Notes under the pieces: generated by a model
Databases searched by the model: none
Seen by the model: only the letters and a program-made list of their open reading frames with translations
What the model was told of the DNA's origin: nothing
Shown here: one piece after another, positions 4,996 through 40,983 of the stretch
Position numbering within the stretch: the stretch's first letter is position 1
Layout: every line of letters begins with the position of its first letter
Source: Nemertoderma westbladi
Lineage: Eukaryota; Animalia; Xenacoelomorpha
Length of the DNA stretch: 64,000 nucleotides
Direction: 5' to 3'
NCBI GenBank assembly: GCA_032718475.1
Contig: JAUCBJ010008056.1
Span: 62,001 to 126,000 of the forward strand
Translations under genes and position numbers: made by a program

Positions 4996-6228
4996 TGTTC
5001 GCGCTTTCAGACCTTTGGCAGTTTAACCCGCCAAATTAGAATGTCTTCTAGATAATAAATCGCTTTTTAGTCTATGACAAGTATTTGATTCACTACACTA
5101 GTCGAAACCAATCCGTGCGCGACCATTCACCCTTCTGGATATTCCCGGGAGATTGGGTTCGGCGGTTTAATTTTTATTGCTATGTAAGCCTAATGTATTA
5201 TTCGACTGACAGTATTATATAATCTCTGACAATATTATTCACCTTCGGTAATATTAACAGTTCCTTTAGGACGTGGCGCTTTATCTATATAAACAGAGTT
5301 ATGACTTAAACTACTCACAACGATATGGCTTAATTATAATCCACATATATGACGCATTCTTTAGGAATTGCTTCTTTAACAGACTCACTCATACACTATG
5401 CTGCACAATACTGCACACTAATCTGCCAGTCTTCACTGATTTTAGTCACATATAAAAGGAACACAGGCTGACTCATGTAGGGTCTATCAAATAACATTAG
5501 ATTCACTTCAAACCACTTTAACATAAGTCACAATCGTTATTGGTAACCTTTCTCTCTTACCTTCGGTATATCAAGAATATTGGGTTGCGGGGTTATTTAT
5601 CGTTATTCCAAATATAATAATTCATCAACCATATTATGAAGAACTGACAGTAAATAGCAGTATCAAACAACAACTGAACAGTTAGGTAGATCGGTACATC
5701 AGTACCGGTATGTCAGCAGTGAGATATTTACAGTGAGATATTCAAGCAGTTAAAGGATATATGCCCTTTATAATTAAACCTACTAGTGTACGACTAAAAA
5801 GCAGTACAGCACAAAATACTTCCAAGCCGTTCTTTCTTTGGCTCAAGACTGAATGTAAACACTGCACATAGGCATTGCGTCATTTCTCGGAAATTTTCTG
5901 TACAAGGAGCCACAAAAACGCTCTCATTGGCTGACTGAACTGAGAGACGCCGTAGAACAAAGGAAATCAACACGTATGAATGTCAGCTGTTAACCGTAGT
6001 CATAGTAACTACTGTTCAAGAGTAGCTATCACCCTTTTGCGTCACGAATTGCCATAGAATCATAAAATATGCCTTTCACAGTACACATACGGAGGAAATA
6101 GGTCTTAGATCCTCTAAAAACACAGATACAGCAATAATACGGTCTCTTACACTTATTAAATCAACTACAGAGTATTTTAATGTAAAAGATAATAAAAATA
6201 ACGGGGCAATTCAGCAAAGGCTTTTACA
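4996..6228 (-). repeat. BEL-1 3' LTR (1233 bp)
   Basis: Matches 16360-17578 except for a few substitutions and a short duplication near 5717-5745. Confidence 0.95.
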
Positions 6229-9239: not shown

Positions 9240-12200
9240 TTAAGTTGGGGAGTCCCTAGATGTCGGTTGGATTAGGGAGGTGGTCGTGGGAAGAGAATCT
9301 TGCCTTCCACAGTTTCCGGAGAGTCCTCCATTCCCTTCCGATAAACACAAACGACCGACTGGGTGATTGAGTCGCTGCATCCTGAATACAATTCCAGGTT
9401 TCCTCTTCGTCCTGGAATAGTGACGATAGAAACATCGCTCAAAGTATATGACGGCGTCACAAAGCCGATTCCAGGAGCTATAGTGGTCCGTCGCTCTCTG
9501 CAGGAGAGGTGAGAGTCCCTGCGAGACGTCTGATGTTCCAGAGCTCCAATCGCTCTCTCTGATCTTCATGAAGGATCCACTCGCGGAGGGGAGGCCCAGA
9601 TCTACGGCGTCGTCCCTGGCAACATGTAATACCGACAGATCTATCCCGGGTTCAAATAACTCCGATCCACACGTCCGGGTTTCAGGTTCGACTTTCTCCG
9701 CTCCCTTGGCTGGTATAATCTCAGTCGGAGTAAGATGGGGAGGCCATTCATTCTCCTTACTCAGGAAGTCGGGTTCACCTAATCGGTCTGTAGTATCTGT
9801 CAGTTCTTGAGGAGTTGCTCCTCTGGAAGCGATGTCAATTGGATTAAACTTCTTGAGGCAATATCTCCATTGATCTACATTGGAGCTAAGATTGTCATTA
9901 TCTGAGGAGTGTGGTGTTCTCTCAGTTGGGTCGTCTCCCTCACTAGTATCATCTTCCCATTCACTCACCTGGCAGACGCGATCTTGAAGCAGTCTTTCCC
10001 TGAGCGTTCTACGGGAAGGTCCAGTAAGGTACCAACCTACTCTAGTTCTTACCGCATAGGTCTGTAGTGGCTGCGGTTGAGCAGGTCGTTTCTCTAATGT
10101 CTCCAGCGCCTCATGCGCGTTTTGGCCGATGAGTATTTGCACTCTAGGGTAATCAGTCTGGAATCGAGGTATGTTAAGATGTTGGATGCTCTCATCCTCG
10201 TCCCAATTATAAAGGTCTGCTTGAGTAGTAGCGAAGTTCTTTATAGCCACCATTTTCACTGACCTTATGCTATGTTCTCCTAGTTCGTCTTGTGGGGTGG
10301 ACAACGCGCCTACATAATAATCAGCTGTTATTGTAGATTTCCAAACTTGCATAATGCCTGACATGTTGAGCTTAGTTTGGAACTTGGGTTGTCCAGCAAA
10401 TATATCTTCGGCTAGCTCTTTATCGATGAATGTTCCTGTGCTGCCGGAGTCCAGGAGGGCGTTCACTACATAACTCCGTTTAGGTCCGTGCACCCTTACC
10501 TGCACCACAGGAAACTCTCGGATTCCTATATTGGAAGTTGGCGCTTTCCAAGATGGTTGTTGATCGGAAGTAGTTAAGGTAAGGTCGCTGTCTGTGTCTT
10601 TCTCATGTACGAGTGCTCGATACACTGCGGTGGTGTTTATTAGGTAACAGGATTCGTTTTGGTCGGAGAACTCGTCCGTATAGAATCCTTCCATCTCAGA
10701 TTGATCAGTGTCGTTCACATCACTGAATTGGACATGTAGTTCGGACTCACTTACCGGACTCGGGCTGTTTCGTTCGAATTCCGTGTGCAACAAGATATGA
10801 TGATTTGCGCCGCACTTTGCACACCTTGCGTCGGAGTTACAGGTTCGCCGTTGGTGTCCTCGTCTGAGGCAATTATAACACAACCGCTTATCCCTCATGA
10901 CTTCACGTCTATCCTCGAGTGATTTCCTCAGGAATTTATCACACGCATTTAAACGGTGGGGCCCGTCGCACAGCACACATTTCGGCTTGATGTTACTTAC
11001 TTTAACCTGTGCTATGTGGTGCACACTTGTTCTTTCCTCGGGCTTTCTCACCTGAATTCCTTTAGGAGACGTAGGAGGGGTTTTTTGTACCGGTTCCCTT
11101 CTGTCATTGGGTCGAGACTTGGATTTACTTACCTGTTCTTTAGGCATTTTATTGACATAATAAGGCCTGTCAGTGTCTTTCCCGCTGTCCTCTCCTTGAG
11201 AGGTTTGGCTTTCACCGTCGTCGGTATAACATACTGGTGTTACCCTTCTCCTAGAAACGGGTTTCTCACTTACCTTGTTTTCCAATGTCTTCTCTCTGGA
11301 CTGCCTTAGGAGCTGTAATTTCACTTCTCTATCTAAGAATGACATGAGATCAGTCATGGTAGGGTCTCGTCGTTGTTGTTCCATCATATATAACACCTTC
11401 TTATCCCAGCGTGTACCTACTCCACCCTTCGGTAAAGCAGAAGCCACTGCTCTAATAACCATAGCACTCTGATACTCATGAGACTTACCTAGCCAATCTA
11501 ATTGTCTGCAGATCTCCTGAATTTCATCGGAAAACTCTATAATCCCGCTGCTAATAAACTTTCGGGGCGCTACCAACTTTGCATACAAATACCCAGCTAT
11601 GTTATTCCTATTACCATACCTGATGTTTAGTGTATCCCAAACTTGTCTTAATCCGTCTGGATGTCCAATAAACCTTAACGCCATTAACTTGGGAGATCCT
11701 TCCAAGCACTCGATGAGGTATCTAAGTTTTTCTCCATTAGATAGTACGGAGTTCTGTATGTTATCTTTGTAATATTCATTAAAAGGTAACCATTTCATCT
11801 CATCTCCATTGAACTTGACGATCTGTCCCACCTTTACCGCTTGCCGGGCTTCGGTTCTAGCCATTTGACGCGTAAAACTTTCTTGGGCCATCGTGTTATT
11901 TAATATCGAGTTATCGGTATATAAATTTCTCGGATTATGATCAGTTCTATAGGGAATGTCATTATCAACAGGTCTATAATTACCCTTAATAGGGTTCACT
12001 ATAGGAGTTTCTACTTCGCTAGCAGTATATATGCGTGTAGGCTCCACACCTTGCGCATGCGATACTTCAGACCTAACGGGTTGACACATTGTTACAGGGG
12101 GTGGTGGTATACCCTTTTGTAAATTTACTAATTTATCGCGCTCTAGCGCGATACTTTGCTGCACTTCTTGCAACTCTAGCCTACTTTCCCTTACTGTGCC

Positions 12201-14192
12201 CTTGAACTGCTGGACAGTCTCCTGCATCTGTCCGAGCAGGATATCCATCCCCCGCCGTCTCTCGTCCACCCATTCGACCGCCGAAGCGGGAGTCGCCAAC
12301 GTTGTAGCGGGCGGACGAGGGACAACGGGCGACAAATTGTGAATATTTCGCTCGGGGTCCAGGACCTGAACTGTCTCTTGGGCAGTTCTGCGGGGCACAG
12401 GTAGCTTAGTGCTATGCAGAGGGAATTTAGAGGTAGTTTCAGGGAGCACATGTGTGTCTATCACCGAAGGGGTGATTTCAAGAACAGGCCTAATTATTTC
12501 AGGCTCATCTACTATAGTAGGGAGTCTTTCTATTTTAATTATTTGGTCTGTGGGCTCTGTACTACCTAAGTTGGTGTTATTTAGTTGCCTTCTAACAGCT
12601 GGAGGCAAATCAGGCAATTTCTGACGGTGGAATGTTCTTTTACGTCTACTTGGACGAGATCTATTTCCCTTGCCTTCAGTATCGGTGGTATCGCCTTCCT
12701 CAGATGATGTATACCCCTGTCTTTTGGGAGTAGATCGCCTCATCATCTGCATATTACTAGCTGTTAACTGTTTATTGAAGTTGTCTTGCCTCTCTTGAAG
12801 GTTTTCCAACTCTAGTTGGGTTGCCTCTTCAGATGCCCTCCGTTCTGCTTCTGCCACTGCCTCTGCTGTTTTTCTTTCGGCTTCTGCCGCTGCCACTGCT
12901 GCTGCCGCTTTCCTTTCCGCTTCGGCCTCTGCCAATGCTGCCTTTCTTTCCGCTTCTGCCTCTGCCACTGCTGCTGCTGCCTTTCTTTCCGCTTCTGCAG
13001 CTACTACTGCTGCTTTCTTTCTGTCTTCTATACGTTTTTTCTTTACTTGTTCTTCCCTTTCTCTAGCGATGCGGAGTTGTTCATCGAATTTAGCTTGGTT
13101 CGCCGCTAACCTATCCACATCAATCGCATCTAACACAAGTTTGGCTCCTTCGCTATTAGGGCTAAGTCCCTCTAGCCTTCTCCTCAACTCTTTATCTCCC
13201 ACAAAACGCTGATAGTCTGACAGATAGATATCAATGGCATCCTTCTTATGCGGTTTCTCTGCCGTCGCTTCACTTTCCACTTGGGAAAAAGTAGCGTCTG
13301 TTGATTCTCCATGGGTTGATCGCTCCTCTAGCTGAGCTTTCCACTGAGCAGTTCCTCGAACCTGGAGATTCACTCTTTGAAACCAAGTCTTTACGGCAAC
13401 TTGCAACGACGTGTCTTGTCTTCTTTTAGAAGCCTCCTCAAAGGCGGATAAGATTAGCCTAATCCGCAGAACTCTTTCTCTAACTTGATAAAGCAGCGAT
13501 CCCTGCTCTTGAGGTCCTTGAGGTTGTTGAAACAGTTGTCTCTCTACTCGCTCCATAGAGCTGAAGAATCCCTGTGCGTATCAGGCTGCGGACCTCTTCC
13601 ATACAGCTGGATCGATGGTTTCCTTGGCTACTCCCATCCTGTGTATGTCTTCCCAGGCAGCTTCTGATAAATCAAACGGGAGTCCGGGTCCGGGGAAGTT
13701 CCATTGCGACTCGACAATAGACTTCAGTTCTTCACTAGTGTAGCCCGCGTAGCTATCTCTAGTTGACCGTTGACTTCTCGCCCAATCGATCTGGTGTTCT
13801 TCTACCGCGATCAATAACCCAGCGAGCACGGCTGCAGGAAGGATGAGAAGGGGATCCGTATAAACCGCATCCGTCATCTCTGCTCCGCTCTCGGGTGTCA
13901 GCTCTACAGTATCCTCACTACTGGAGCTGCTGGGCCGCTGAGGAATAAGTTCTTGACTAGCGGGTTGTTGCTGTTCCGCTGCTTGTTGGTCCCGCTTGAC
14001 CTGAGCTCGAGTGCCTATGATAGACCTACGATGTTGGACTAGCCTAGGTTCTGTTATTACTACTGGAGGGATGACCTTCCTCACAGTGGGAGGTGAACTG
14101 GATTTACGACCAGACGTTTGTACGTCTCTATCTGAGTCGCAGATAGTGACATCTAATAAACTGTCTGACAGGTTCTGCTTAGTATCAGACAT
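9240..14192 (-). pseudogene. BEL-1 gag-protease polyprotein with short RNase H and integrase remnants; one in-frame TGA at 13581-13583
   Basis: ORFs 14192-13581 and 13556-9240 are in the same frame. Motifs: CYNCLRRGHQRRTC, CAKCGANHHILLH, ALLDSGS, WRYC...NPIDIASRG, HPVGRLC. Confidence 0.88.
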
Positions 14193-15539
14193 GACTATGT
14201 ATACCGTTGAATGTCTACTGCTGTATTACAGTCTGAGTAAGTCTAGTAACTCAGTATTACCTGCTAGCCTAGTAATTAATTACCGGTACTGCTACTCAGT
14301 GTAGCGTGATATATATATAATATATTAGAATACCGGTATACTTATAGTATATATAACTATATAAGTATTATTGCAGACTAGGTTTATCACAGAATACCGG
14401 TATAATTTTAGCACAAATATATATAAATATATAATAGGCCTATCGGAATACCGGTATACAGCTTACAGTTTGTAGGATATATAATTCTGAAATAGAATTA
14501 ATTATAAGTACCGGTATAATTTCAGCCTAGATTTATAGAAATAAAGATAATAGGCCTATCGTAAATACCGGTATATCAATTATTTCAAATAATTGAATTT
14601 CTGTTACTTTAGGGTTACTTTGTTACTTTACTTACTTTATTACCGTTATTTGAGCAGTAATCCAACTGATATTGAGACCTGATGGTTGTATGGTAGGCCT
14701 ACGATTTATAAATCGTTAGATTTGATTTATAATATATATATACCCGTTTTAATGGGTTTTGTCAATGTTTGAAATAAATGTTATTATTTCTGGGGAGTAA
14801 TCACTACACAAAGCGGTGCGCTTTCAGTGAAGTGTTACGTACAGGACACTAAAACAAATAATACTAATTTACCTAAGTTACTTAATACTACAAATTACGT
14901 ACAATTCGGGTGAGATTACAATCTCTAAATAAACACAAAATTTTACAAAAACACAAATACGAATTTTTTAGGGTAATTTTACAAGAAGTCTACAAACCAG
15001 CCTAACAAAGGGTTAGAAAACTGATTATTACAGCGGACAGGGTACTACGGTATTTGAAATAATAAGTAGTAGTAAATACACTGCGTTGTCTAGATAGGAA
15101 AATACCACCGCCTGACGACCTATAGCCGTATCGCTATAGGTTCTACGTTATGTATCACGGAGTGTTCCTACCTAGAAGTTAATAGAGCTAATCGAATGTG
15201 CCTATCAACCACTTTACAACACAAATATAATGCCTACAATAATTACTTCGGAAAGTACTATACACTAAACCCTAAATTAGGTACGAGTACTTGTATAACA
15301 AATAATCAGTAGTTAAATATACTTGAACAGCTAAAAGAACCACGGCATCTGCTGGAGTGACCGATGCACAAAATCACCAGTCTTTACCTACGCCAAGCAG
15401 CCCGTGTAGTACCGAGGTTAATTTAACTATAGCGGTATGTATAACAAACACAATTACTGTAGGAACAAACTTAGGGAATGAATGTTGCGGATAATCGCAT
15501 AAACTCTGAATAATAAATATTACGCTACGCGTACAAACT

Positions 15540-16080
15540 ACTCAAATAAAATACAGACCGAACACTGACAGACTACTATCAAGCCTAAACAAACTACGGT
15601 ATATGCAGACTCCGAAATGATTAGGGAGTATGCGCTCTAACCCAGTAGTGCGACTTATTCTTTAGTTGGGGGTTTACCTTACAGCGTTCGCTGCCCCTAC
15701 TGCCTAATCGTACTTAATCGGACAGATGATCTACACACGCGGCAATCCGTTCAGACCTAATAACAGCCAGACAACTATCCAGCCTACAAATTATCTAAAT
15801 AAAATTATACGCTACCCGTACAGACTTACACAAACAAAGTACAGACTAAACGATGGCAGACTACTCTCAAGCCTAAATAAATTACAGGACATGCAGACTC
15901 CGAAATGATTAGGGAGTATGCGCTCTAACTCAGTAGTGCGACTTATTCTTTAGTTGGGGGTTTACCTTACAGCGTTGCTGCCCCTACTTCCTAACCGTAC
16001 TTAATCGGACAAGTGCTCTACACACACTGCAATTCGTTCGGACTTAACAGCAATCAGACAACAGCTCAGCCTACAAATTG
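15540..16080. repeat. Two ~290-bp direct repeats in the BEL-1 5' leader
   Basis: GCAGACTCCGAAATGATTAGGGAGTATGCG...TTAATCGGAC occurs at about 15605 and 15892. Confidence 0.9.
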
Positions 16081-16347
16081 TCTGTACAATCTGATCAGGT
16101 TTACACGCCTTCTGTTCAATACTGGCCTACAAACAAATAAAACTGACAGAAATAGGCCTAAGTAAAATCCCAATAAACCAGGCGTCCCCGATTAATTATT
16201 AAGACCTACCGGCATATATAATCAAATCGAATAATACTGCTGTACTTATACGGAAGTAGGTACCGGTCCGGATGATCAGGCAGTCAGGCCTACTGGTTAC
16301 CGGTCGACCGATACTTTCGACTTTATTGCTTACTGCAATAAAGAAGC

Positions 16348-16359
16348 TATATCCTTTAA
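16348..16359 (-). promoter_or_regulatory. BEL-1 non-tRNA primer-binding position (TTAAAGGATATA)
   Basis: Directly follows the 5' LTR, has no TGG, and is complementary to LTR segment 17100-17111. Confidence 0.65.
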
Positions 16360-17578
16360 TGTTCGCGCTTTCAGACCTTTGGCAGTTTAACCCGCCAAAT
16401 TAGAATGTCTTCTAGATAATAAATCGCTTTTTAGTCTATGACAAGTATTTGATTCACTACACTAGTCGAAACCAATCCGTGCGCGACCATTCACCCGCTG
16501 GATATTCCCGGGAGATTGGGTTCGACGGTTTAATTTTTATTGCTATGTAAGCCTAATGTATTATTCGACTGACAGTATTATATAATCTCTGACAATATTA
16601 TTCACCTTCGGTAATATTAACAGTTCCTTTAGGACGTGGCGCTTTATCTATATAAACAGAGTTATGACTTAAACTACTCACAACGATATGGCTTAATTAT
16701 AATCCACATATATGACGCATTCTTTAGGAATTGCTTCTTTAACAGACTCACTCATACACTATGCTGCACAATACTGCACACTAATCTGCCAGTCTTCACT
16801 GATTTTAGTCACATATAAAAGGAACACAGGCTGACTCATGTAGGGTCTATCAAATAACATTAGATTCACTTCAAACCACTTTAACATAAGTCACAATCGT
16901 TATTGGTAACCTTTCTCTCTTACCTTCGGTATATCAAGAATATTGGGTTGCGGGGTTATTTATCGTTATTCCAAATATAATAATTCATCAACCATATTAT
17001 GAAGAACTGACAGTAAATAGCAGTATCAAACAACAACTGAACAGTTAGGTAGATCGGTACATCAGTACCGGTATGTCAGCAGTGAGATATTTCAAGCAGT
17101 TAAAGGATATATGCCCTTTATAATTAAACCTACTAGTGTACGACTAAAAAGCAGTACAGCACAAAATACTTCCAAGCCGTTCTTTCTTTGGCTCAAGACT
17201 GAATGTAAACACTGCACATAGGCATTGCGTCATTTCTCGGAAATTTTCTGTACAAGGAGCCACAAAAACGCTCTCATTGGCTGACTGAACTGAGAGACGC
17301 CGTAGAACAAAGGAAATCAACACGTATGAATGTCAGCTGTTAACCGTAGTCATAGTAACTACTGTTCAAGAGTAGCTATCACCCTTTTGCGTCACGAATT
17401 GCCATAGAATCATAAAATATGCCTTTCACAGTACACATACGGAGGAAATAGGTCTTAGATCCTCTAAAAACACAGATACAGCAATAATACGGTCTCTTAC
17501 ACTTATTAAATCAACTACAGAGTATTTTAATGTAAAAGATAATAAAAATAACGGGGCAATTCAGCAAAGGCTTTTACA
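16360..17578 (-). repeat. BEL-1 5' LTR (1219 bp)
   Basis: Direct repeat of 4996-6228; CCAAT near 17280 and TATAAA near 17120 on the - strand. Confidence 0.95.

Positions 17579-17637
<59 letters not shown>
17579..17637. repeat. (TAC)n microsatellite
   Basis: Direct reading. Confidence 0.98.
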
Positions 17638-17639
<2 letters not shown>

Positions 17640-17769
17640 TTTTTTTTTTTTTTTTTTTACTTTTTTTTTTTTTTAGTATAATATATTTAGTTAAACTATA
17701 TCTATAGCTAATAAATATAACAAATTCACATAGTTGAAAATTATTACGAGATCAAAAATTATATATAGA
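17638..17769 (-). mobile_element. Extremely 5'-truncated poly(A) retrocopy (3' UTR plus A tail) inside the microsatellite
   Basis: About 37-nt T run followed by ~95 bp of AT-rich sequence, with (TAC)n on both sides. Confidence 0.6.
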
Positions 17770-17827
<58 letters not shown>

Positions 17828-17832
17828 GCTAC
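17770..17832. repeat. (TAC)n microsatellite with one TGC variant
   Basis: Direct reading; ACTACTACTGCTAC (17819-17832) recurs at 35906-35919. Confidence 0.97.
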
Positions 17833-18109
17833 CAGAACTCAAGTTGTTTGCCCTGTCTCCGCAAATGGGGGGCCTGGGGTTGCGGAACCCAGTTAACGAG
17901 GTCGATACCAACTTTGCTGTATCAGAACTTGGGACACAGTCGCTGGTGAACGCGATCGCCGGGAAGGAGCCATTCTCCTTAGCCACCCACCTGAAGTGCA
18001 TGGAGGGAGCGCGCATGACATCTCGGAAAGAGAGGCAGGGTATGGAGAAAGCCCAGCAGGAGCAAGTGTTGGAAGGAATGGCGGAGCACCAGCGTGTCGC
18101 TGTCCAACG

Positions 18110-20038
18110 TATAGAATTATATTCCCTAAATGCCGTGGATTTTCAAAATTTTTATTTTATTCGAATTAACTTTGTAAAAGATTACTTTGAGTCCTCATTT
18201 GTATTTGTTATATCATTTATACACCCATTGGTCAAGTGGTTCAGTAGCTCAGTCGGTAGAGCGTTGGAAATTATATGTGTAGTAGGTATTGAGTTCGAAT
18301 CCTAGTAAGTGCGAATTATTTTTTGTGCAGAATTTCAACTCATTTAAATTGACCGCTACAAATTAATTGCATTTATCTGTACCAATGAGACTGTAGTTAT
18401 TTGATTGTAACCAATGTCGTGCAAGTTATATATTAGCTGGACCAATAGCTATCTTTAAAAACCTGTTAGAACCTATAGAACAATCGAGAATTTTCTCGAT
18501 TGATTGCAGCACAAATTTGGTATATAAAGGTGCGATTCGTTCATTAGTTATCAATCTTATCGTATCTTCAGTTCATATTATATTCGTATCTCTGATTTAT
18601 CTGATATTTGTTTATTCTGTCATTAGTTTCTCAGATTACATTTTGTATTATTATCTGCAATAAATTCAGAAATACCGCTATCTGCTTTTCTTTCACCATG
18701 ATTCACTACGGTGAACAAACCTAAGGGACAGGATGGCCGGCTAGAGATCGGGCCGCAGCAATGAACGGGAACATCACGGGAATGTAGACGAGAGACAACC
18801 CGCAATACCACCTTAGTTATTCGCCCATCGCCTGAAAGGTTAGACAGCGTTCGACACCTCGCTACCTAAGCGTAAGACCAAAGATCAAAAGGGTAGAAGT
18901 AGTGACACGCTGTGAGCCTAAAATTACATCTTAGGGACTGTACTGTCTTGATTCAGAAAAAACCACAGTAGACCTTCATATTCCTACGGGGGGAGAGCGC
19001 AGGCAGATACTAGTACGCAGATAGGACGTAGGCACACCGGTACGAAGCATACAAATTGGTAGGGTGCAGCAAACTGTACGCCTAACTCTTGCTAAGTACA
19101 GGTGCGTGTGCGACTATTTGCAGTACAACGTGTCCATTGCATTAGAACTTGTAGGCTAGGAGGGTTGTTGTGTTTTCACCTGAATTAGGATTGTACCGTT
19201 CAGGCGGTAGGGCAGTTTACAGCTAGGCGCAAATAAATTGAGGCTATTAGGGATATACTAACATCTACCATGTCCCCGCCAACGCCCTAATAGGAAGTTA
19301 CCCGGACTACCTGGGTGACTAAAATTCTAGATAGGACGCCAGGATAGCTATTAGTAACTGTACGCCTACAGTAGTAAACTAACACATCTCTTCTTAGTAT
19401 CAGGGACCTGGTACATAAAATTGCCGAATTCTGGGCGTAGTATTAACCCTATGTCTGAATTTGAGTCCTGGAAATACGCAAGAGGGGAAGGAACCTTATC
19501 ATTCGTGAGTATTGGACCTACAAGTTACAAAATTAGAATATTCGTAAAATGCACACCGTACCCAGTAATTATATATGTGAAGGAGCAAAACTGTTTTTGA
19601 CCGTTCAGAATTAACACACGCGCGTTAGAAATTATTTACACCTCAAAATATATAAAATTAACTTTTGTCCTTACTGTGCTTTGCCCGCTAGTTAGACATC
19701 TCCAAATCTGCCTCTGTACCTAGCTAGCGTCTCTTCGCCCAACCATATAAATCACACCGCGGCAAAGTATACGAGCCCCTTAGTCCGTCAGTGAGTCAGC
19801 CTGATTTTAGGATTCGCTGCGCGGGATTTTGTTTTATCGAAGTTTGTCTGCTCGTAGACTGTTTTCTGCCTCACCGGTTATAAGAGATCGATACTGCAAT
19901 ATATTCGCTTACTTAGAGTTTACTGTTTTGGTGAGAAGGTCGGATTTATGATTTGATTTACAAACTTTACAGTAAGATATTGCAGGTATTGTTACCGTCT
20001 CTTCCATATTAGTAGGAATAGGCGTATCTCTTCAATTA
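18110..20038 (+). repeat. BEL-2 5' LTR (TATAG...AATTA)
   Basis: Direct repeat of 32977-34905; CCAAT motifs at about 18380-18450, TATATAAAG near 18521, AATAAA at 18659 and 19232. Confidence 0.95.
18238..18324 (+). ncRNA. tRNA-derived Pol III-like cassette in the 5' LTR
   Basis: A box TAGCTCAGTCGG with D-arm GCTC...GAGC, B box GAGTTCGAATCC, then a T run. Acceptor and anticodon stems are not intact. Confidence 0.6.
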
Positions 20039-20049
20039 GTAGGAATATG
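20039..20049 (+). promoter_or_regulatory. BEL-2 non-tRNA primer-binding position (GTAGGAATATG)
   Basis: Directly follows the 5' LTR, has no TGG, and is complementary to CATATTCCTAC at 18977-18987. Confidence 0.65.
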
Positions 20050-20847
20050 TTTTACTGAACTACGGTTCGGTAGGACTAAAGTTATTTGAAAATTTTGTAT
20101 TTTGAGGTAAAAATTTGTATTTGATTAGCTAAGTGCTAATTTTGAAACAAAATTTGATTTGAACCGCGTGTAAAATATTTTTGGAATTGAATACCGGTGT
20201 TTAAAAGGGTTTAAATACCATATTGTACCGGTACAAAATTTTTCGTAAAAGTAAAACCTAACTCTTTTGTTTTTTCAGGATTCAGAACTCATTTCTAGGC
20301 TGTAACGGGAGCAAGACCGTGTTTAGCAAGTTTGGGAGATAGATAACTCAACAACTTTGGTTGGGAAAATCGCGCTTCGTCCGCAACGCTGGAAACGGAA
20401 AGGTTCACGTTCGGTTTGTATCTGGGGATCTGTTTTTCTGGAGAATTATTGGAGTGGGTGAGTTCGAAAAGTTGCATAAATAAGTTAGGCATTACCGTAT
20501 TAGTTAAAATTATTGTGGGTTCCACTGTCTCAAGTATTTATGCATTCCGTATGATTTCTTTGTTCATTGCTGAATTAGTCCGTATTATTGTATTTAATTT
20601 ACCTTTTGATAACGCATATTGTTATCCGATTTATTTGTTATAAAATTGGCCGCTAGGCTAATTTTATTATATACTTATTCCGTGACATTTATTTGCTGTA
20701 AAATTGGCCGTTTAGGCTAATTTTATCCATCTGCTATAAAATCGGCCGGTAGGCTAATTTTATATGACTGTAATTAGTACCGTTTAGATATAAATACGGT
20801 AAACTTGGTACTTTGACACTCACTTTACTTGACTTACAACTACCGAA

Positions 20848-23800
20848 ATGAGTGACAAACAAGACTATACGAAGAATACACAAACCGACTATGACTCATG
20901 CGACGGAGATAAGTCAGCAGCGGAAGAACAACAGGGGAAGACTCGCGAGCCTACCGAACCTACACCGTGTGCGTCACCAGTACATCCAATGGGAGTACCG
21001 GATGCCGTAGTACGAGGCGACAGCAGGACCGAGGACTTTCTAACTGTTCCGCAACCTAGATACAGGGAAACGGAAATGGTAAGTTCAGCAGGAAGCACAG
21101 AAAGTGTGGTTAGAAGCGTCGGAGGTTACATGGCGCATATAACCAGGAGTATTGGAGAAGGCCAACGCATATTAGACGAGTTGACCGCTCCGATGTCTCG
21201 ATTCGAGTTCTACACCCTCCAGGTTAGAGTACAGAGTAAAGTATATAAGTCCGTAGATAATCTAATTGGTCTACAAGATCTAGCTAGACAGAGACAGGAC
21301 ATGGATACTCAACTTAGAATCCTCGAGAAACTAATGATCGCTAGAGAGAAACTGATTCAGTTTAAGTCGACGATTAGACAGATACAACAGGAACAAGCGG
21401 ACCAGTTGTTAGGTGAGTCAGTTTCGGACGAATTATTACAACCCGAGGAAGAACAGGAACTGTACCGACTGGATGGACAATTGAAACATCTGACGGACCA
21501 CTTACGTATGTGCGGCGAGGATGTCGGAGATTGGGAAACCGTGCCGGAATATACAAGGGAAACTTCACCCGTACGAATCGAATCGGCACCGGGAATACTG
21601 AATCAATCACTGGTGAGTATTCGCAGCGAGATTAACGAGGTAAGCATGGTCACGTCAGAAGTTGCTCGACAACAGCAACAGTTCTACAGACAGCAACACG
21701 AGATGGAAGAACAAACTCAACTACTAATGATACAAACAGCGGTAGAGGAAGAGAAAATACGTGTTGCGAATGTAGCTAGAATCTCTCATCTGCAGGAACA
21801 AGCCGAACTCGAAGCGGCCGAAATGGAAAGGTTAGAGTTGGACATTGCCCAACAAGCGGCAGCGGCCGAGTTAGCGCAACGAGCGGCAACAGCCGAGTTA
21901 GAGCGACAAACGGCAGCGGCAGCGGCCGAGTTAGAGCGACAAACGGCAGCGGCAGAGTTAGAGCGACAAACGGAAGCGGCAGAGTTAGAAAGAAAAAGGT
22001 TAGTTTCAGAAGCCAGAGTCGAGATGAAGACACGGCAAATAAAAGCCCAACAAGCGATACGACAAGCAGAGTTCGAGGCGCAACAACAACAAACGGAACA
22101 ACGAGAAAAGGAAGTTAAACTTCGTTTCGAACTTGAGAAAAGGGCGAGAGAATTAGCCGAAACCAAAGAAAATCTGGATCTTCTAGCCCGTGATCGATCG
22201 ATGAGATCTCGTGACGGACATGATTTGGACCAGATAGAGGTAAGGCATCGCCAAATCCAGGAACGACTAAAGGAAGGTTCGATAGGAGCACCTGGATGGG
22301 AACGACAATTAGTAAAGGACTTATGTCAAAGATTCCCTCAAGTAACCCCTATGTTCGCACCAGTTACAACTAAGGAACCTGTTTCGATTGCGGGCAGTAG
22401 TGATATTTCTCCTATCCATGGTGCGACGGAACACAGGTTTGTTATTCCGGACAAGTTTACACCGCCAAGAGCAACGTCGTCGCCTATTCCGAAAGTCAAG
22501 GTAAGTAACCCACCGATTACAGATCGTAGTAGTTTGTTGACTGGACCTGCACTACTGACGACTAAACAGGTGAGTCCACCGTCGACACCTAAACCCGTTA
22601 CACACTACGCTTACCCAATGACGTTTAGGCCTACAAAGCCTTTGGATTCAAACGCTGTCGTCCGACCACCGGTTCAGTTTACATCGCAATCTACGACTTC
22701 GAGGAAGACTTGTGAGCCTACCGAACAACGGAGAACAGTGGATACGCGACCGTTCAATCAGTTTACATCGCAATCTACGACTTCGAGGAAGACTTGTGAG
22801 CCTACCGAACAACGGAGAACAGTGGATACGTGACCGTTCAATCAGTTTACATCGCAATCTACGACTTCGAGGAAGACTTGTGAGCCTCCCGAACAATGGA
22901 GACCAGTGGATACGCGACCGTTCAATCAGCGTACATCGCAATCTACGACTTCGAGGAAGACTTGTGAGCCTACCGAACAACGGAGAACAGTGGACGATGT
23001 TCCGAAACGGAACGTTAGAATTCGTACGACGCAACGAACGCGAGCACGTCGACCACCATATCCAGATGATAGTAGTACTTCGAGCGAATCGGATTACCCG
23101 AAATGCGAGGTATTTAGAACAGGGGCGACCGACGAATATAAACGCGAGCGTTCAGACAACTCCTTTGTAGACAATCCTCCACAGAATACACCAACACAGA
23201 AGGCGTTACAACCAACGAACGCAATCAGTACTCAACAATTTGCTGACATTCTGAGACCAGTTGTTAACAAGTTGGCTCAGATCGAGGAGCGTCTGGAGGA
23301 AGTTCAAACCGATAGTTCGAGGAACACCGAATTCGAACACAATAGACACCCGAAGGAACCACAAAGACCGGTACCTTCAAAACACACATCGTATCAGGGA
23401 AAAGCGCCAAGAAGGGATATCAACCAGTGTACCAACCAAGGACGCGAAACTCTGAACGTTGCCGAGGAGATAGCGAAATTCGCAGCCAGACAGGGATTGC
23501 CGGTACAACAACCACCGAAGTTTTCCGGTAGCTCAAAACACTGGCACACTTTCGTAGACTATATCGAATCCCAGATCGCCGTGTGCGCCTTTACATCACG
23601 GGAGAAGTTTAATTACCTGCTTCAAACGTTGTCAGGAGAACCTAAACGTTTGGCGGAGACTTTCGTCGGTGTACCGGACGCCTTTGAATTAGCGTACGAT
23701 CGTTTGACCTCGATCTACGGAGGTACAGTTAGTATGGCCAGGTCAGTAATAGAGGAACTCTGTAAGGGAGGGGCTATCACTAAACCCGTCGACTTATTAA

Positions 23801-26800
23801 AACTGGCCGACGAGATAAAGAACGCTATCACTACTTTAAGATCCATTGGACAACTCGACTACGGGAATACCCCTACAGTCCTATTAAAGATCATAGGACG
23901 ACTCCACCATCGACTTCGTCGGGAGTGGAGAAAGATCGAATACCAGCGGGAAGAGCGGGGTGGATTCTTAAAACTAGAGGATGTGTACCTTTTGATATCC
24001 AGGGAAGCAGTTGTAGAAACACGATCCAACTACACTGACCAGCACATCGTAGCAGAAGGAATCACCTTGCCATCCTCCAACCGACAAAAACCCCAGACAA
24101 CATCCACCAAGATGGCCACTTACGCCACATCGACGGAAACCCGACAATTCTCGGACGGTAGTAGAGTATCTGCGCCCATTGGGACAAAACAGACGAGACA
24201 ACAACTCAGTACCGACTTTAGCGGCTGCCAATACTGCGAGCATTTAGGCAAGCGGTATATCGGTCACAAGTTGCGAGGTTGTCGACAGTTTCGCGAGTTG
24301 AACTCGGAAGAACGACGGCTGCAGATACGGCCATTGGACTCGTGTTGGCGGTGTACGCGACACGGACACGTCCGTAAAGATTGCCAAAATACCGACACTT
24401 GTCCATCCTGTGGACGCAACCACGACGGTCTGCTCCACACAGACAGCCACACACCGACAAAACGCTTCGCCAGGGAACACCCGGAAGCAGCAGCGAGATG
24501 TGATGCGGCCTACAGAAAACGAGAATCGAAAACGACTCCGACCTTCGTGACCCATATTGAGGATTGCTTCTCAGAACAACCCGGATCGTCGGACGAAGAG
24601 TCAGAAGACGACGACGTATATTCGGATGGAGATGAACAGCCATCGATCGCGCTTCTGACCACTGACCAACTAAAGGGATTTAGTGTAATTCCGATTAAGA
24701 TTACTGGCACAAAGGGGAGTAAGAGAATCTGCGCTATTCTAGATTCAGCCTCATCTCACAGTTACGTGGATGAAAAGATAGCTGACGTCGTGACGGATCT
24801 CAGACAAGGTAAGCGTGTCAGTTATACCGTAAGTAGTATGCACGGACAGCGTGCTATACCAGTGACACGAGTCAAGTTAAACTTAGACTCTCTTCTTCCG
24901 AAATCGCAACACAGCGAGAGGGAGAGGTCTTTGTTACCCTTCAAGGATTTGACCTTTGCGGCCACCAAAGACTTTAGTAACCTACTAGGTCCGGTCCCAG
25001 AACAATCCTTGGAGGACCGTAAGTATTTCAGACACCTTGGTGTACCTGAATGTCCTGTCAATTATAGATCGGTAGCCATGCTGATCGGGACGGACCAATT
25101 CAACCTACATCAGGTGTGGGAAACCAGACCATCGGCAGTCGTAGCGGGAAACGCATACGCCTGTAGAACGCCGATAGGCTGGTATACTCGAGCGCCTGTG
25201 CGCACACTAGACGTAAGTGACGAGGAAGACGATGTACAAAGTACATGTAGTTTATTAACTACAAATTCAATTCATTCCTTTTCACGCGACGTGGACCATA
25301 CTACACTGCAGTCGACAAAACATAACAGACGTGTAACTAGTATGATAAGTCACAAGGAGCAGCTAACCCGCCAGGTGAATTTAGAACTTGGGGAGAAGAC
25401 GAGTCAACTAGAGATTCCATCGACGACAGATGATAACGCCGGAAGGCTTGCGAGTCTACCTACCCCAACGACATCAACGAGGCCCGTCGATATCGATGAT
25501 GACGCGTTGAGAAATCATCAAATGGAACAAGCTGCACTGGACAAAGAATTAATGGAGAAGACTATCAGGTGGTTAGAACAAGATACAGCTGAACCTGGTA
25601 GCTACGAACCTTGTATGTCGGAACAGGAGAAACAATCTCTGAAGATCATGGAAGATACTATCCGACAGACGGAGGACGGACATTATGAGGTAGGGATGTT
25701 ATGGCGTAGCCAAAGTCCTAAACTCATAAATAACTATCCACTGGCTTTAAGACGTCTACACTCAATACGGCAACGTCTATTAAAGGACGAGAAAGCCCAT
25801 CTGCAGTATAACACTCAGATGGAGACGTATTTGACTAAGGGATACGCTATCCGAATGACTAACCCGGAGCGAGTGACTGACCAGACGTACTACTTGCCAC
25901 ATCACTACGTGAGACACCCCGACAAACCAGACAAAGTACGTGTAGTCAATGACTGTGCGGCTCTGTTTGAGGGAATGTCCCTCAATAGTGAGTTAATGGA
26001 TGGACCAAACATGAATAATTATCTTATGGGGGTGATTATGCGCTTCCGTCAGCATCAAGTAGCTTTTACTTGCGACGTTGAAGCGATGTTTCACCAAGTG
26101 AGAGCGTTAGAGCAAGACAGAGACAGTTTGAGGTTCCTCTGGTATCCGGAAGGAGACTTAAGTCTACCACCGGCGACTTACCAAATGCAAGTTCGCGTTT
26201 TCGGTGCCAGAGACAGCCCAAATTGTACCATGTATGCCCTAAAGCAGGCCGCTAGGGATCAGAAACATTTGTATGACCCAGAGATAATTAGGATTGTGGA
26301 GCGTGACTTTTACGTTGACGACGGATTACAGAGTTGCGACACAGTAGAACGTGCTACAACAGTAGCACATCAATTACGAGACTGTTTAGCGGGCGGAGGT
26401 TTTAACCTCACCAAATTCGCCTCAAACAGTGCCGAATTAGTAGACTCATTCGGAACGACTGAGCGTGGAGGTGGTGACATGGACCTAGAGTTCGAACCAC
26501 TACCGACGACCAAGGTGTTGGGGCTTTTTTGGGACCCAAACACAGACAAGTTTCGAGTGAGAGTGAGACTGGACAGTCAAGAAAACACACTGACAAAGAG
26601 ATCATGCTTGTCAAAATTGAGCCGATTGTTCGATCCATTAGGATTCATCAGTCCGATAATACTACAAGCCCGCATTTATATGCGCAGTATTTGGAAGGAT
26701 GGACTGACATGGGACGAGCCGATCTCATCAGACCAAGTGGACTTATGGAAAACCTGGGAGGCAGAATTATCTTCGCTAGAGGATTATTCCATACCCAGAG

Positions 26801-29775
26801 TTTACTTTCCATTACAAACAACATTCACTGACAACTTGGAATTACATTGTTTTTCTGACGCCAGTGACAACGGCTTTGGTGTGGCAGCGTACTTGCGCAG
26901 ACAAGTAGACTCAGAAAAATTCGATGTTTCGCTCATTACTTCTAAGGCAAAAACAATGCCTACTAAGTATATGACGACACCACGAGCTGAGCTACAAGCC
27001 GCAACCCTGTCAACCACCATCGTGAACCTCATACAGACAGAACTACAGTCAAGTTTACAGATATTTTATTGGACTGACGCGACGTTGGTTTTATTTTACA
27101 TAAACAACGACACACTTGAATTCAAGACATTCGTAGCTAACCGTCGCGCAGAAATTCTAGACCGTTCAATAAAAGAGGATTGGCGACATTGTCCCGGACC
27201 ACAAAACCCAGCTGATATTGCGTCGCGAGGAATGATGCCTGAGGAATTCTGTAAACCGGAAAACAAAGAATTTTGGCAACACGGACCACAATTCTTACAA
27301 GGTTCAACACTACATTGGCCGCCGTTATACGACAACAAGTCTAACACCATCCCTAAGGACGCCGAAATCAAGAAACCAAAAAGGGGGAAGGCAAAGAAAA
27401 GGACGACGGCGGCGAAACTCAAGAAAAAACCGAAGGCGAAATGGAAAGATATAACTTCAAAGGTCAAGAGAGGAAGACTTGCGAGCCTTTCTACACCAGA
27501 CATATCGCCAGACATATCGCCAGACATATCGCCAGACACGTTACTAGACGGTCAACCAGACGTTTTGCCAGACACGTCACTAGATATTTCGCCGGATGTT
27601 CCGCGAAACATTTTACCAGACATGTCACAAAATGTTCTACCAGACACTAGTAACACATTGACAAATAATAAAGCCGCAGTTCCCCTATTGGAGCGGCCTT
27701 CTATTGACAAACAACCAGATACGTTACCAGACGTATCGCCAGACACATTACTAGACAGTCGACTAGACATTTTGTCAGAAACATCACAAAATGTTCTACC
27801 GGACATTAGTAATGTATCGACTAACAGTAAAGCCGCAGTTTCCCTATTGGAGCGGCCTTGTATTGACAAATTACCAATTTTGACACACTTGAGCAACCAT
27901 AAGCACGGTGAAACCTCATGTATTACAGATGTGGGTAGTACCTACGCTAATGTAAATACAGGTGTTACTTTGCGCTCAAGAGACATACCGAACTTGCAAC
28001 CTATGGTGAGACCTGGGATTAATGTCGGCAGAAAAATAAGTTTACCGAAACCTGCTGACCCCATAGAGTTCAAACCACCATTAACGATCGACTTACAAAG
28101 TACTGACAATCGAGGTAAGAAGACGAAGAAGGACAAATTACTTGTAGACCCGGACGGATCAACAGTCAACAAGGGAATACTTACCGGCGGACCCGTGGGC
28201 CCTTCTAGTAAATCAAAACCTTCCAAGTTCTCCATTGACTTACCTGATGACGTCACAAATACTTATGTCGACCGTATTGTAAACCTAACAGACTCTTGGA
28301 CAAGCGCTTGCCGAAAATTAGCGTGGATTGTACGTTTTGTACAATACGTTAAAGGCAAACGCGACTTTACACGTCGACTTACATTGGCTGAGATTGACAG
28401 GTGTGAGATTAAATTAATTCGCCATTACCAACTGCGATATTTCGCACGCGAATTCACATCCATAAATCAAGGTCAACCAATCAAGTCGTCACCAATACTG
28501 AGTTGGAGTCCGATTATTTATAATGGCTTAATTTGTCATAAATCTCGGCTTCAAAACATTGACTTTAACACGAACTTTAGGTACCCAATAATAATACCGC
28601 AACACCACGAACTACAACGTGCAATGATACTGGACGCACATTTACATCTGAAACACGCTGGAAGACACCACTGTCTTTCCTACTTACGTACAAGATTTGT
28701 ATTAATTAGACCCAGTAAAGCGTTAAGTTCAGTGACACGTACGTGTATTATTTGTAAAAAGGTACATTCTAGAATAGGTACCCAAGAAATGAGTGAACTA
28801 CCACAAGCACGACTTCAAGCATTCAGACCACCTTTTACAGAGACTGGAATTGATTGCTTTGGTCCCATACATACGAAACGTGGACGTATACTAGTAAAAC
28901 GCTGGGGACTGATTTTCACATGTATGTCCAGTAGGGCAGTTCATATCGAACGTGTGATGGATCTTTCCACCAACGCGTTTATACTAGCATTGCGGCGATT
29001 TATCGCTAGACGCGGACTAGTAAAATGCTTGTACTCAGACCAAGGGACAAACTTTGTTGGTGCTCGAAATGAGATTGCTAGAGCTTTTAAGAAATTAGAT
29101 CATGATCAAATCTCGAACGAACTACAACCTCACAAGATTGTTTGGAAGTTTAATCCTCCAGATAGTCCATGGAGAGGCGGAGTCTGGGAGAGATTGATTA
29201 GATCTATAAAGACAGCCATGGCAAAGGTCATTCCAGTAAACCACATATTGACAGACGACCAACTGACAACATTGTTTGTTGAAATCGAGGCAATACTAAA
29301 TACTAGACCAATAGTATTAGTACCCGATGACAAACAATCTCAGTTTGCTTTGACACCGGCACACCTGCTAATGCAGGCACCGACAACTTTGACGCCTATT
29401 TCTATTCCAATAGAAAGCGACAGCTACGGTAGAAAAGCGTGGAAAATCACGCAACTACTGGCTAACAAATTCTGGGAAATATGGCAAAACCATTATTTGC
29501 CCTCTATTTCTGCCAGAACAACATGGTACAATAACACCCGGGCATTAAAGCCGGGAGATCACGTGCTGTTAGCGGAAGTGAATCTAAAAAGACGCTTCTG
29601 GATAACAGGTGTAATTTTAGCCACACATCCATCTATGGATGGAGTGACAAGAACTGTGACGGTACGGACAATTGACGGTCGTACAGTAGACAGACCGACT
29701 CAACGTCTCGTACTTCTTGAAGAGACTCGTAACGAGTCTGGAGACTACAAATCTCCACCTAATACTAGTAAATAA
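20848..29775 (+). pseudogene. BEL-2 gag-pol polyprotein interrupted by a single CGA>TGA at 22831-22833
   Basis: ORFs 20848-22833 and 22906-29775 are in frame. Motifs: CWRCTRHGHVRKDC, ILDSAS protease, FYVDD RT, CFSDAS RNase H, HHCC and DCFGP/SDQGTNF/WERLIR integrase. Confidence 0.93.
22675..22995. repeat. 84-bp tandem repeat, four units, within gag
   Basis: QFTSQSTTSRKTCEPTEQRRTVDTRPFN units; GGAAG landmark at 22703, 22787, 22871 and 22955. Confidence 0.95.
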
Positions 29776-30437: not shown

Positions 30438-30773
30438 ATGGAGAAGGAGATACATAGAGAGCCGAGATGGGGATATGATATCCAAGAGGAAGCGGCAGCT
30501 TCATTCGAACGATTTGGAGCAAAGGACTACACTATATTTGGTATAAAGGAATTATCAGAAAGTACAGCGAAGCTCGCAAAGACAGCAATGCCTTTACTCG
30601 AGCAGGATTTAGCATATTTCGAGACGTGTATCTTCGCTGTGCGGGATCTCTTATCGAAAGACCATCTATGTTTACATTGTTACCCTATGAAGGAGAACGT
30701 ATCGTGGAGATTACGGATGAATCACGGCAGACGCGCGCGCCTATCGGTCACCTTGGTGATGATTTCGAAGTAA
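30438..30773 (+). CDS. Small ORF overlapping the start of ORF3; possibly its N-terminal part
   Basis: First ATG (MEKEIHREPRWG) at 30438; overlaps 30626..32140 in another frame; no recognised motif. Confidence 0.35.
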   Translation: MEKEIHREPRWGYDIQEEAAASFERFGAKDYTIFGIKELSESTAKLAKTAMPLLEQDLAYFETCIFAVRDLLSKDHLCLHCYPMKENVSWRLRMNHGRRARLSVTLVMISK

Positions 30774-32140
30774 CTACTACGATCGCCGACGATCCTTTAG
30801 AAGAACTTCTTGAGATAGAAAGGAACCTCCCGAAGAAATCTCAGACGGAGATTCGACAACTTGAAGCAACGGATGCTATAGTTTGTATACAACCTTCAGA
30901 AACCTACCAACCCATAGACCCAGATGATTACGATTATAGTATGGGAGGAAGCGCTCGACCGATTGGAGATCTTATATACGAACGAGTGTGGTACCCTGCC
31001 AATACGATGTGTAGTAAATGTGGCGTCGCTGGACATCATATGACAAAGTGCAGTGGAAAGCACATTACTACGACTCAGCTAATCTGTGGATGGTGTGGGG
31101 ATCAAGGGTCTCATACCTTTTATACTTGCTGGAGATTTATGGCTCAATGTACTTATTGCAATATAAAGGGACATCGAGCATCTGAATGCCAACTAAGAGA
31201 CATACCTTATGAACACGAATCTGTAAAACTCGTGAGAAAATTATTTGATGAGTGGGAAGATTTAGCCGACGAACATGTATCGGCACAAAGAAGACGATTT
31301 CCGATGAGAGCGCATCTCGGATTTTGGGCGGTAAATCCTCAAACGATGATGTCGGAAGGATATATCTCCGCTATGCCCCAATATGACGAACTTATCGAGG
31401 TAGTCGATATTTTGCCCCACGACAGTGGATTTCGAGTAGTGCGCGAGTATCTACTACAAATTCACCCGGATAACAAAAACACGTGGAACTTTCAGAAAGT
31501 CGTTAATCGCATTACGTATGGTGAATTCGATCGTTTCCGAACTGAAAAGCGGAATAAAGGAGCTTGGTTAACCATCGCATGGGCGTACCGAGCCGCGTTT
31601 TACCACAAACGTATACGAGCGAGCGTATTCGAGGAAGAAGAGGTCCTAGAGGCGACGAATATACCAGCCACTCCGGTTGCGCCGTCTGCACGTCACCCTC
31701 GGGAGGACGGACAGGGTAGGATCATACGGGTCCAGAAAGTGGGCCAACAATTAAAGAAAATTATTAATATAGAAGAACGCAAGGGAGCTGAGCCGACCAT
31801 TCGAGTTACTCGGGATACGGTATCGCTTCCAAGAGAACCAGTAGGAGGATCGGGACATACACCAGCTGATCAACAGGGGGCGCAAGCTACTCTTGGGTCT
31901 GCGTCGTCCACTCCTCGCGCGTTCCCAGACGTTCTACCAACTGTAGTGACAACTGATCGGTCACGAGGAATCGGTCGAGGTTTTGGGATGCCAAATAGAC
32001 GAATTTGCGAGGAAATAGTCGCACCGTCTCTCAACGTCCCAAGTAAACCAGTGACTCGTCCCATTAGTCCCATATCGCGAGCAAAGTCACCTGTGCGCAG
32101 TTTTCGAGGACGCGGCAGGGCTCGATCAACTAAGCGATAA
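30626..32140 (+). CDS. BEL-2 additional ORF3: three CCHC-type zinc knuckles and a Pro/Arg-rich tail
   Basis: 504 open codons between pol and the 3' LTR; CSKCGVAGHHMTKC, CGWCGDQGSHTFYTC, CTYCNIKGHRASEC; ends RSFRGRGRARSTKR. Start codon uncertain. Confidence 0.8.
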   Translation: MYLRCAGSLIERPSMFTLLPYEGERIVEITDESRQTRAPIGHLGDDFEVTTTIADDPLEELLEIERNLPKKSQTEIRQLEATDAIVCIQPSETYQPIDPDDYDYSMGGSARPIGDLIYERVWYPANTMCSKCGVAGHHMTKCSGKHITTTQLICGWCGDQGSHTFYTCWRFMAQCTYCNIKGHRASECQLRDIPYEHESVKLVRKLFDEWEDLADEHVSAQRRRFPMRAHLGFWAVNPQTMMSEGYISAMPQYDELIEVVDILPHDSGFRVVREYLLQIHPDNKNTWNFQKVVNRITYGEFDRFRTEKRNKGAWLTIAWAYRAAFYHKRIRASVFEEEEVLEATNIPATPVAPSARHPREDGQGRIIRVQKVGQQLKKIINIEERKGAEPTIRVTRDTVSLPREPVGGSGHTPADQQGAQATLGSASSTPRAFPDVLPTVVTTDRSRGIGRGFGMPNRRICEEIVAPSLNVPSKPVTRPISPISRAKSPVRSFRGRGRARSTKR

Positions 32141-32969: not shown

Positions 32970-32976
32970 GGAGCGG
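32970..32976 (+). promoter_or_regulatory. BEL-2 polypurine tract (GGAGCGG)
   Basis: Abuts the 3' LTR; identical to the end of the BEL-1 PPT. Confidence 0.75.
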
Positions 32977-40892: not shown

Positions 40893-40983
40893 TGTTCGGC
40901 TCGCGGCGTCCGCGAGTCGGAACCTAACACCTACCGGTAAAGGCACTGTATTCTGATCGTACATAGGCCTATCGCCACTGAGA

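Follow-up and report, generated by a model that had tools for sequence, protein, structure and literature searches.

BEL/Pao long terminal repeat (LTR) retrotransposons, classified as Belpaoviridae by the International Committee on Taxonomy of Viruses (ICTV), are described as carrying an 18-nt site for tRNA-Arg or tRNA-Gly and as being primed by host tRNA; their replication is considered poorly understood, and their LTRs and genomes are given as 0.2-1.2 kb and 4.2-10 kb, respectively (PMC8742986). In contrast, the available text of several other papers, to which our citations of them refer, describes elements that prime themselves. Tf1 and Tf2 of Schizosaccharomyces pombe, Tj1 and the Tf1/sushi group have no tRNA site but carry, right after the 5' LTR, the complement of an 11-nt LTR segment, and in Tf1 the primer is released when RNase H cuts after base 11 (PMC7175516, PMC4600332); three Tf1 duplexes form a 'pretzel' (bioRxiv 2022.12.06.519325). 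For plant elements, self-primers have been defined by a complementarity of at least 10 bp starting 0-5 bp after the LTR, and on this criterion the Tcn1 chromoviruses and the Ty1/copia TAR elements (Houba, Osr-1) are predicted self-primers (PMC6317226). Here, we analyzed two BEL/Pao elements in a 64,000-nt stretch of the Nemertoderma westbladi genome (contig JAUCBJ010008056.1, positions 62,001 to 126,000; hereafter, the window): BEL-2 on the + strand (E2) and BEL-1 on the - strand (E1). Self-comparison of the window and inspection of the element ends showed that the two were inserted back to back. An earlier note, made from the window's sequence alone, had proposed that both elements replace the tRNA site with a site complementary to their own LTR.

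Neither 5' LTR is followed by TGG. The primer-binding position of E2 (20039-20049, + strand) is exactly complementary to 18977-18987 in its LTR (3' LTR copy, 33844-33854), and that of E1 (16348-16359, - strand) is exactly complementary to 17111-17100 (3' LTR copy, 5761-5750). We refer to the LTR segments, 18977-18987 (+) and 17100-17111 (-), as the partners; each is the putative 3' end of a self-primer. A direct check placed all six strings given in the earlier note at these positions. The exact pairing spans 11 nt in E2 and 12 nt in E1 and starts at the first internal base; one base earlier, the exact match falls to 4 and 6 nt, respectively, so that the duplexes stop at the LTR boundary, as had been described. 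The complement was present in 2 of 5000 dinucleotide shuffles of the E2 LTR and 3 of 5000 of the E1 LTR; a rough hand estimate in the earlier note had put the chance below 1e-3 per element. Matches of equal length occurred at 10 of 12,898 internal positions in E2 and 2 of 10,091 in E1, the observed ones included. Among all 35-nt LTR windows, the partner gave the best duplex with the first 26 internal bases in both elements (-21.6 versus -17.7 kcal/mol for the next window in E2; -20.3 versus -15.8 kcal/mol in E1). Because the LTR and leader regions of E1 and E2 shared only chance-level matches of 11-30 nt (E >= 0.33), the two elements are separate observations. Both therefore have an LTR segment of at least 10 nt complementary to the bases that follow the 5' LTR, at offset 0, as in the plant definition, and the loops between partner and primer site are 0.75 kb (E1) and 1.05 kb (E2).

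By their proteins, both elements belong to BEL/Pao: E2 encodes DUF1759, Peptidase_A17 and DUF5641, and E1 encodes DUF1759, zinc knuckles and a protease (PR). The 2687 protein homologues contain the same families, the best at 39-44% identity, and the named ones among the best come from molluscs, cnidarians, echinoderms and one brachiopod. E2 also has the order PR, reverse transcriptase (RT), RNase H and integrase between LTRs, with a polypurine tract and a target-site duplication, whereas E1 is truncated after PR. The gene order, LTRs, polypurine tract and Pfam families thus resemble those of Belpaoviridae (Semotivirus). However, both elements lie outside the ICTV size ranges (E2, 1.93-kb LTR and 16.8 kb in total; E1, 1.22 and 12.6 kb), E2 has TA..TA ends and an extra 3' open reading frame (ORF), and the TGG of a tRNA site is lacking after both 5' LTRs. 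The absence of a tRNA site and the LTR segment pairing directly after the 5' LTR are shared with Tf1/sushi, but those are Ty3/gypsy chromoviruses, whereas E1 and E2 have BEL/Pao proteins and no chromodomain match. The sequence criterion shared with Tcn1 and TAR, and the proposal of self-priming in more than one superfamily, concern plant and fungal gypsy and copia elements, for which the available text mentions no splice-built primer (PMC6317226).

The earlier note had named covariation of primer site and LTR among family members as a check. An RT-RNase H alignment led to 79 related loci from metagenome contigs, representing the best 80 of at least 534 confirmed stretches; no related loci were found in the viral contigs or genome contigs searched. 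From the repeat table, 23 testable loci with a complete LTR were picked by hand, the remainder having no complete LTR by our rule, and L023 and L025 were left out as repeats of L027 and L026. Set A comprised 11 loci with the LTR end fixed by two copies and set B 12 loci in which the 5' LTR was whole and its start fixed. Covariation was borne out: 21 of the 23 carried an exact 10-15-nt complement to their own LTR 0-6 nt after its end, 20 of them only across a predicted GT..AG intron within the LTR. In set A, TGG was absent from the first 9 nt of all 11 loci and contiguous matches reached just 6-8 nt, but removal of the predicted intron produced an exact 10-15-nt complement at an offset of 0-4 nt in nine. 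The exceptions were L027 (12 bp with one G-U) and L079 (none from the 3' LTR, 10 nt from the 5' copy). All 12 loci of set B had 10-15 nt (11 at the junction, one, L050, contiguously), compared with 2 of 12 reversed controls. With stricter filters the count in set A was 7 of 11, and an intermediate automatic run gave 8 of 12. A blind scan recovered the same arrangement in L004, L005, L010, L015, L021 and L043, and L017 had a contiguous 11-nt form. The unsplit form is therefore found in E1, E2, L050 and L017. The contiguous partners of L017 (122-283) and L050 (101-295) have tree neighbours of the split form (L013, L024), which suggests switches between both forms.

Could these complementarities have arisen by chance in A+T-rich sequence? 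Other internal positions do reach 11-13 nt (nine more in E2 and one more in E1). Against this, two unrelated LTRs pair at approximately 5e-4 each at the very position that matters, 21 of 23 relatives do likewise, only 2 of 146 cross-family pairs reached 10 nt, a control that refutes chance, and random 40-mers from the same element did so in 0-3 of 300 cases per locus. We regard chance as hardly credible; the pairing is a real, non-chance feature.

The primer sites themselves vary widely. Among 20 rows (18 locus representatives, E1 and E2) there were 17 different 11-mers, each matching its own LTR; primer site and partner thus vary in step among the relatives, as had been reported for E1 and E2. 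Off-diagonal matches of at least 10 nt numbered 20 of 380, all within five loci with one common core. The CATAT seen at both partners, in contrast, was not kept in those of the relatives. A common tRNA T-loop origin of the GTTCGAA-type sites found among the relatives was considered and rejected, since sites of unrelated letters match their own LTR equally well. In a quick RT tree of 78 rows (without L048 and L061, and without named BEL, Pao, Tas, Sinbad, Suzu, Dan or Flow reference elements), the trait occurred across the main branches.

Taken with the pairing, these comparisons indicate, with a probability of roughly 0.7, that BEL/Pao elements of the E1/E2 type use their own RNA, and not a tRNA, to start minus-strand synthesis; the relatives support the view that self-priming of BEL/Pao would extend well past the two elements. 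The earlier proposal of tRNA-independent self-priming in BEL/Pao is thus upheld as to the lineage, but not as to a Tf1-like transcription start at the partner. E1 and E2 probably work like Tf1 without being members of Tf1/sushi, and would differ in primer length and in a link to splicing. In our model, the unspliced, genomic RNA would fold back, bringing partner and primer site together as a duplex. A cut just 3' of the partner, probably made by the element's own RNase H as in Tf1, would then free a 3'-OH, and the capped 5' fragment bearing it would extend beyond the paired portion. From there, RT would copy the LTR back to the cut and jump to the 3' repeat; a jump by way of the repeat region (R) downstream of the cut would need poly(A) addition downstream of the partner. 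Spliced RNA of E2 would serve as mRNA only, whereas in most relatives splicing would build the primer. Being located upstream of the cut, the relatives' LTR intron would be copied from the 3' LTR and thereby preserved during replication. Both elements are young and therefore needed a primer. E1 is non-autonomous, since RT, most of RNase H and integrase have been lost, and yet retains the pairing; it would borrow RT in trans. On balance, we lean toward a broader proposal, in which a large animal BEL/Pao branch self-primes under spliceosome control: in most families, removal of the LTR intron would build the primer end at the exon joint, in E2 a different intron, holding primer and primer site, would sort mRNA from genome, and the primer would be a long capped 5' fragment and not an 11-mer.

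The E2 splicing in this proposal draws on nine listed sequence runs, none of which is recorded as RNA and which were read as contigs, so that transcription starts are not visible in them. One contig of run X4 (depth 249.8) joined 18838 to 20279, its shorter side being 22 letters long; the joint was absent from X1, X3 and X5. It delimits a GT..AG intron of 1440 nt (18839-20278, + strand) with a branch-like CTAAC at 20258 and a pyrimidine tract, and its acceptor was the sole one in 2.9 kb to pass our filter. X4 behaves like RNA, being the sole run to show the GT..AG joint, a break between contigs at 20457/20458, a second donor and, in one contig, clustered A>G differences. The putative second donor lies at 20458-20463 (+; score, 7/9): a contig piece ends at 20457 and the next one starts 30 nt earlier. 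Places with A>G differences numbered 45 in X4, as compared with 25 in X1 and 23 in X3. An X4 contig had a dense A>G cluster at 19575-19652, as expected of ADAR-edited LTR RNA. RNA of the E2 family thus contains at least 18815-18838, upstream of the partner, and the joint shows that there is E2 RNA whose start is 140 nt or more upstream of this segment. The partner and the primer site are both inside the intron and are missing from the spliced RNA. No variants of either were seen in the 40 of 187 variant rows that were listed. One of only four differences between the E2 LTRs affects position -1 of the splice donor (G at 18838 in the 5' LTR, A at 33705 in the 3' LTR).

These data bear on a strict Tf1 geometry, in which a second start at the partner would place this segment at the very 5' end of the genomic RNA, as its first 11-12 nt, the upstream promoter yielding spliced mRNA only. 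Starts at the partners (18978 and 17112), suggested in the earlier note, find no support in the X4 joint or in the relatives, in which the partner is astride a predicted exon joint and an upstream exon is therefore needed. Moreover, one X4 contig runs from 18920 through 18977, and no TATA box lies approximately 30 nt upstream of either partner, as had already been noticed. The E2 TATA-like box (18521-18528, +), from which the main start is predicted near 18550, had been said to place the start elsewhere, in agreement with E2 RNA from upstream of the partner. In the relatives, the pairing takes in just 4-10 nt of exon 1, and TATA-like boxes were found in 3 of 18, at -36, -92 and -111/-144. Conversely, Tf2 has alternative start sites of which just one yields primer-bearing RNA (PMC5341516), a start at 18977 would skip the poly(A) signal at 18659, and the L009 TATA box, 36 nt before the donor, would give a very short exon 1. 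We consider strict Tf1 geometry unlikely; a primer provided by the 3' terminus of some longer 5' fragment is more likely than one consisting, as in Tf1, of the first 11 nt. Compared with Tf1, the partners of E1 and E2 are 0.75-1.05 kb from the primer site, the E2 partner is downstream of already transcribed RNA, and the relatives' partner is split by a predicted intron.

The poly(A) signals bear on the choice between the cis model and priming in trans. In E2, AATAAA occurs on both sides of the partner, at 18659-18664 and 19232-19237 (both +); the downstream signal is consistent with the cis model, and the pair is the main problem for it, which trans priming or template switching would solve. 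In E1, tandem AATAAA/ATTAAA signals (16529-16541, - strand; signal at 16541) are downstream of the partner, as the model needs. Under trans priming, the element-derived primer would come from a second packaged RNA, the excised E2 intron or a small RNA; the template would stay whole, and strong-stop DNA would extend to a short R near 18550-18680. Such priming would avoid any clash with the AATAAA at 18659, the E2 intron does contain both partner and primer site, and RNA folds do not favour long-range pairing in cis. Among the relatives, on the other hand, poly(A) hexamers were downstream of the predicted cut in six of eight and upstream in none, as the cis model needs, and we judge trans priming to be quite unlikely, slightly more so than a start at the partner.

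A further explanation is that the pairing is a structural or regulatory switch acting in splicing, packaging or dimer formation, with the primer being a host RNA such as a tRNA half. Alternative hairpins do compete with extension of the duplex in both elements. Immediately 3' of its primer site, E2 has a 12-bp hairpin (20049-20076, +), and E1 has a 9-bp hairpin 3' of its own site (16321-16343, -); 0 of 200 shuffles equalled either one. Priming by a tRNA half, with no TGG involved, is known from copia lineages (PMC6317226); in this Osser/Bianca type, the primer site complements an internal stretch of a host tRNA. However, one host RNA could not match 17 different primer sites, and in every case the duplex terminates 0-6 nt away from the end of the LTR and the partner's 3' end faces that end, which is the geometry of a primer. 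The window contained no tRNA genes according to ARAGORN, and an Rfam search of 15000-21000 (E <= 1) gave a single weak, irrelevant match. We consider a switch with a host primer to be improbable. As a family-wide feature, the hairpin after the primer site was rejected (3 of 18 relatives at <= 4/100), as were the pretzel duplexes in shuffle tests on the relatives; whereas Tf1 has a pretzel, it is not conserved here, and the 3' side in E1 and E2 forms a local hairpin.

Returning to self-priming in cis, several points weigh against it. Whole-leader partition-function folds gave the duplex a probability of 0.0 in four of four folds. The Tf1-type flanking duplex at the U5 end is not conserved, with shuffles as low in 216 of 300 cases for E1 and 21 of 300 (borderline) for E2, and it exceeded shuffles in 1 of 18 relatives (1/300). 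If the E2 AATAAA at 18659, upstream of the partner, is used, strong-stop DNA made on the cut template would be without R, and with the E1 TATA-like box (17122), transcription would begin just downstream of the partner. The sequence runs, all of them contigs, show neither a start site nor a 3' end, and neither cleavage nor a primer-DNA junction; X4 is labelled 'DNA?', and the E2 joint comes from a single contig with its 22-letter side. The 23 loci include near-copies, representing approximately 16 families by the tree, their introns are motif predictions only, and the filters were relaxed after the data had been seen (pyrimidine tract from 9 to 7 of 14, intron <= 500 nt, offset <= 6). Finally, E2 forms a long branch (1.7) outside the relatives in the quick RT tree, and common ancestry of the trait in E2 and the relatives is therefore unsure.

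Our literature search, which was mostly at title level, with most subscription papers, Repbase Reports, GyDB and supplements outside its reach, found no paper on self-priming or a splice-built primer in BEL/Pao, in line with the earlier note, which had also given tRNA sites as the general description of BEL/Pao (PMC8742986). The available text of PMC6317226, PMC4600332, PMC7175516, PMC5341516, PMC3601003 and bioRxiv 2022.12.06.519325 names self-priming in Tf1/sushi, Tcn1 and copia TAR, and not in BEL/Pao; the words PBS and tRNA are absent from PMC3118150 and PMC554778, and the portions available of PMC3286476 and PMC8220671 contain no BEL self-priming. To date, Tf1-type gypsy elements are the only ones for which self-priming has been shown; for some copia elements it is predicted. 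If our reading is true, self-priming occurs in a third LTR superfamily, and in animals, and has a splice-dependent form; transposition would thereby be tied to the spliceosome, and the persistence of an intron in an LTR would be explained. It would also explain why tRNA-based annotation fails to find primer sites in elements of the E1/E2 type, and such elements may be independent of host tRNA supply and of tRNA-fragment defence at the primer site.

For E1, splicing is a prediction from motifs. A motif scan placed an intron at 15002-16923 (- strand; donor at 16923, acceptor before 15001), whose excision would take out the primer site. In a stretch that ended at 15800, short of this acceptor, neither an E1 splice joint nor, among the loose ends listed, a fitting one was found, and nothing in X7 or X8 matched E1. 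No GT..AG pair tried in E1 or E2 produced a splice-built partner of 11 nt. In X4 and X6, contigs related to E1 align over the partner and cease to match directly after it, at 17099/17098, a weak hint of constraint. A loose end at 16357 in X6 could represent a related family's leader, sharing the LTR end but having another primer site, or mere flank.

E2 is bounded by a 5' LTR of 1929 nt (18110-20038, +) with non-canonical TA..TA ends and a 3' LTR at 32977-34905 (+), which differ by 4 substitutions per 1929 nt, and by the target-site duplication CAACG at 18105-18109 and 34906-34910; the polypurine tract is at 32970-32976 (+). The relative L054 has TG..TA LTR ends. The end of the E2 LTR (20038) reads CA plus four bases, resembling the CA-plus-spacer before the relatives' primer sites. 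A 13-nt direct repeat (20008-20020 and 20035-20047) places the LTR end and most of the primer site a second time 27 nt upstream, and the copy at 20008-20020 offers the partner an alternative 9-10-nt register. The gag-pol frame (20833-29775, +) encodes DUF1759, three CCHC knuckles, PR, RT, RNase H, integrase and DUF5641, with the enzyme motifs retained in order at 24739-29176, and is interrupted by one in-frame stop (22831-22833) within an 84-bp tandem repeat. The extra ORF after pol (30479-32140, +; 553 aa) has three zinc-knuckle-like motifs (zf-CCHC, E=0.005, below the Pfam cut-off) and a basic C-terminus, and Pfam gave nothing env-like.

On the U3 side, both E2 LTRs contain an A-box and a B-box of tRNA-like sequence and, after them, a run of T (18245-18301 and 33112-33168), possibly a captured head of a short interspersed element or a Pol III promoter. 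This stretch had no Rfam tRNA match and no cloverleaf above shuffles. As a self-encoded primer it was rejected, being not complementary to the primer site; 105 of 200 shuffles folded as well, and relaxed ARAGORN made four other calls in the region.

The E1 LTRs, at 16360-17578 (5', 1219 nt, TG..CA ends) and 4996-6228 (3', 1233 nt; both -), differ by 2 substitutions, one 13-nt indel and one 1-nt indel, and the 5-bp target-site duplication is inside a (GTA)n run. The gag-protease frame (9240-14225, -) has one in-frame stop (13583-13581), and only the end of RNase H remains after the protease. Both elements thus have an in-frame TGA in the N-terminal part of gag, at the stop positions given above, raising the possibility of either mutation or read-through. 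The E1 leader contains a 290-bp tandem duplication (15505-16083; 85%).

Elsewhere in the window, Ty3/gypsy-type pol frames at 40957-44904 (+) and 56741-59497 (-) lie within 36559-47129 and 55334-64000, respectively, and adjoin three arrays of a 30-bp unit that are open as 10-aa repeats. The region 55334-63657 is a 4164-bp tandem duplication at 99.98%, and there is an inverted copy of 42537-45961; nesting or an assembly artefact is possible. Broken elements of the long interspersed nuclear element type, with RT and endonuclease, occupy 750-4784 (-) and 47755-52174 (+), and ORF1 of the former has a cysteine-rich start and 21- and 30-bp repeats.

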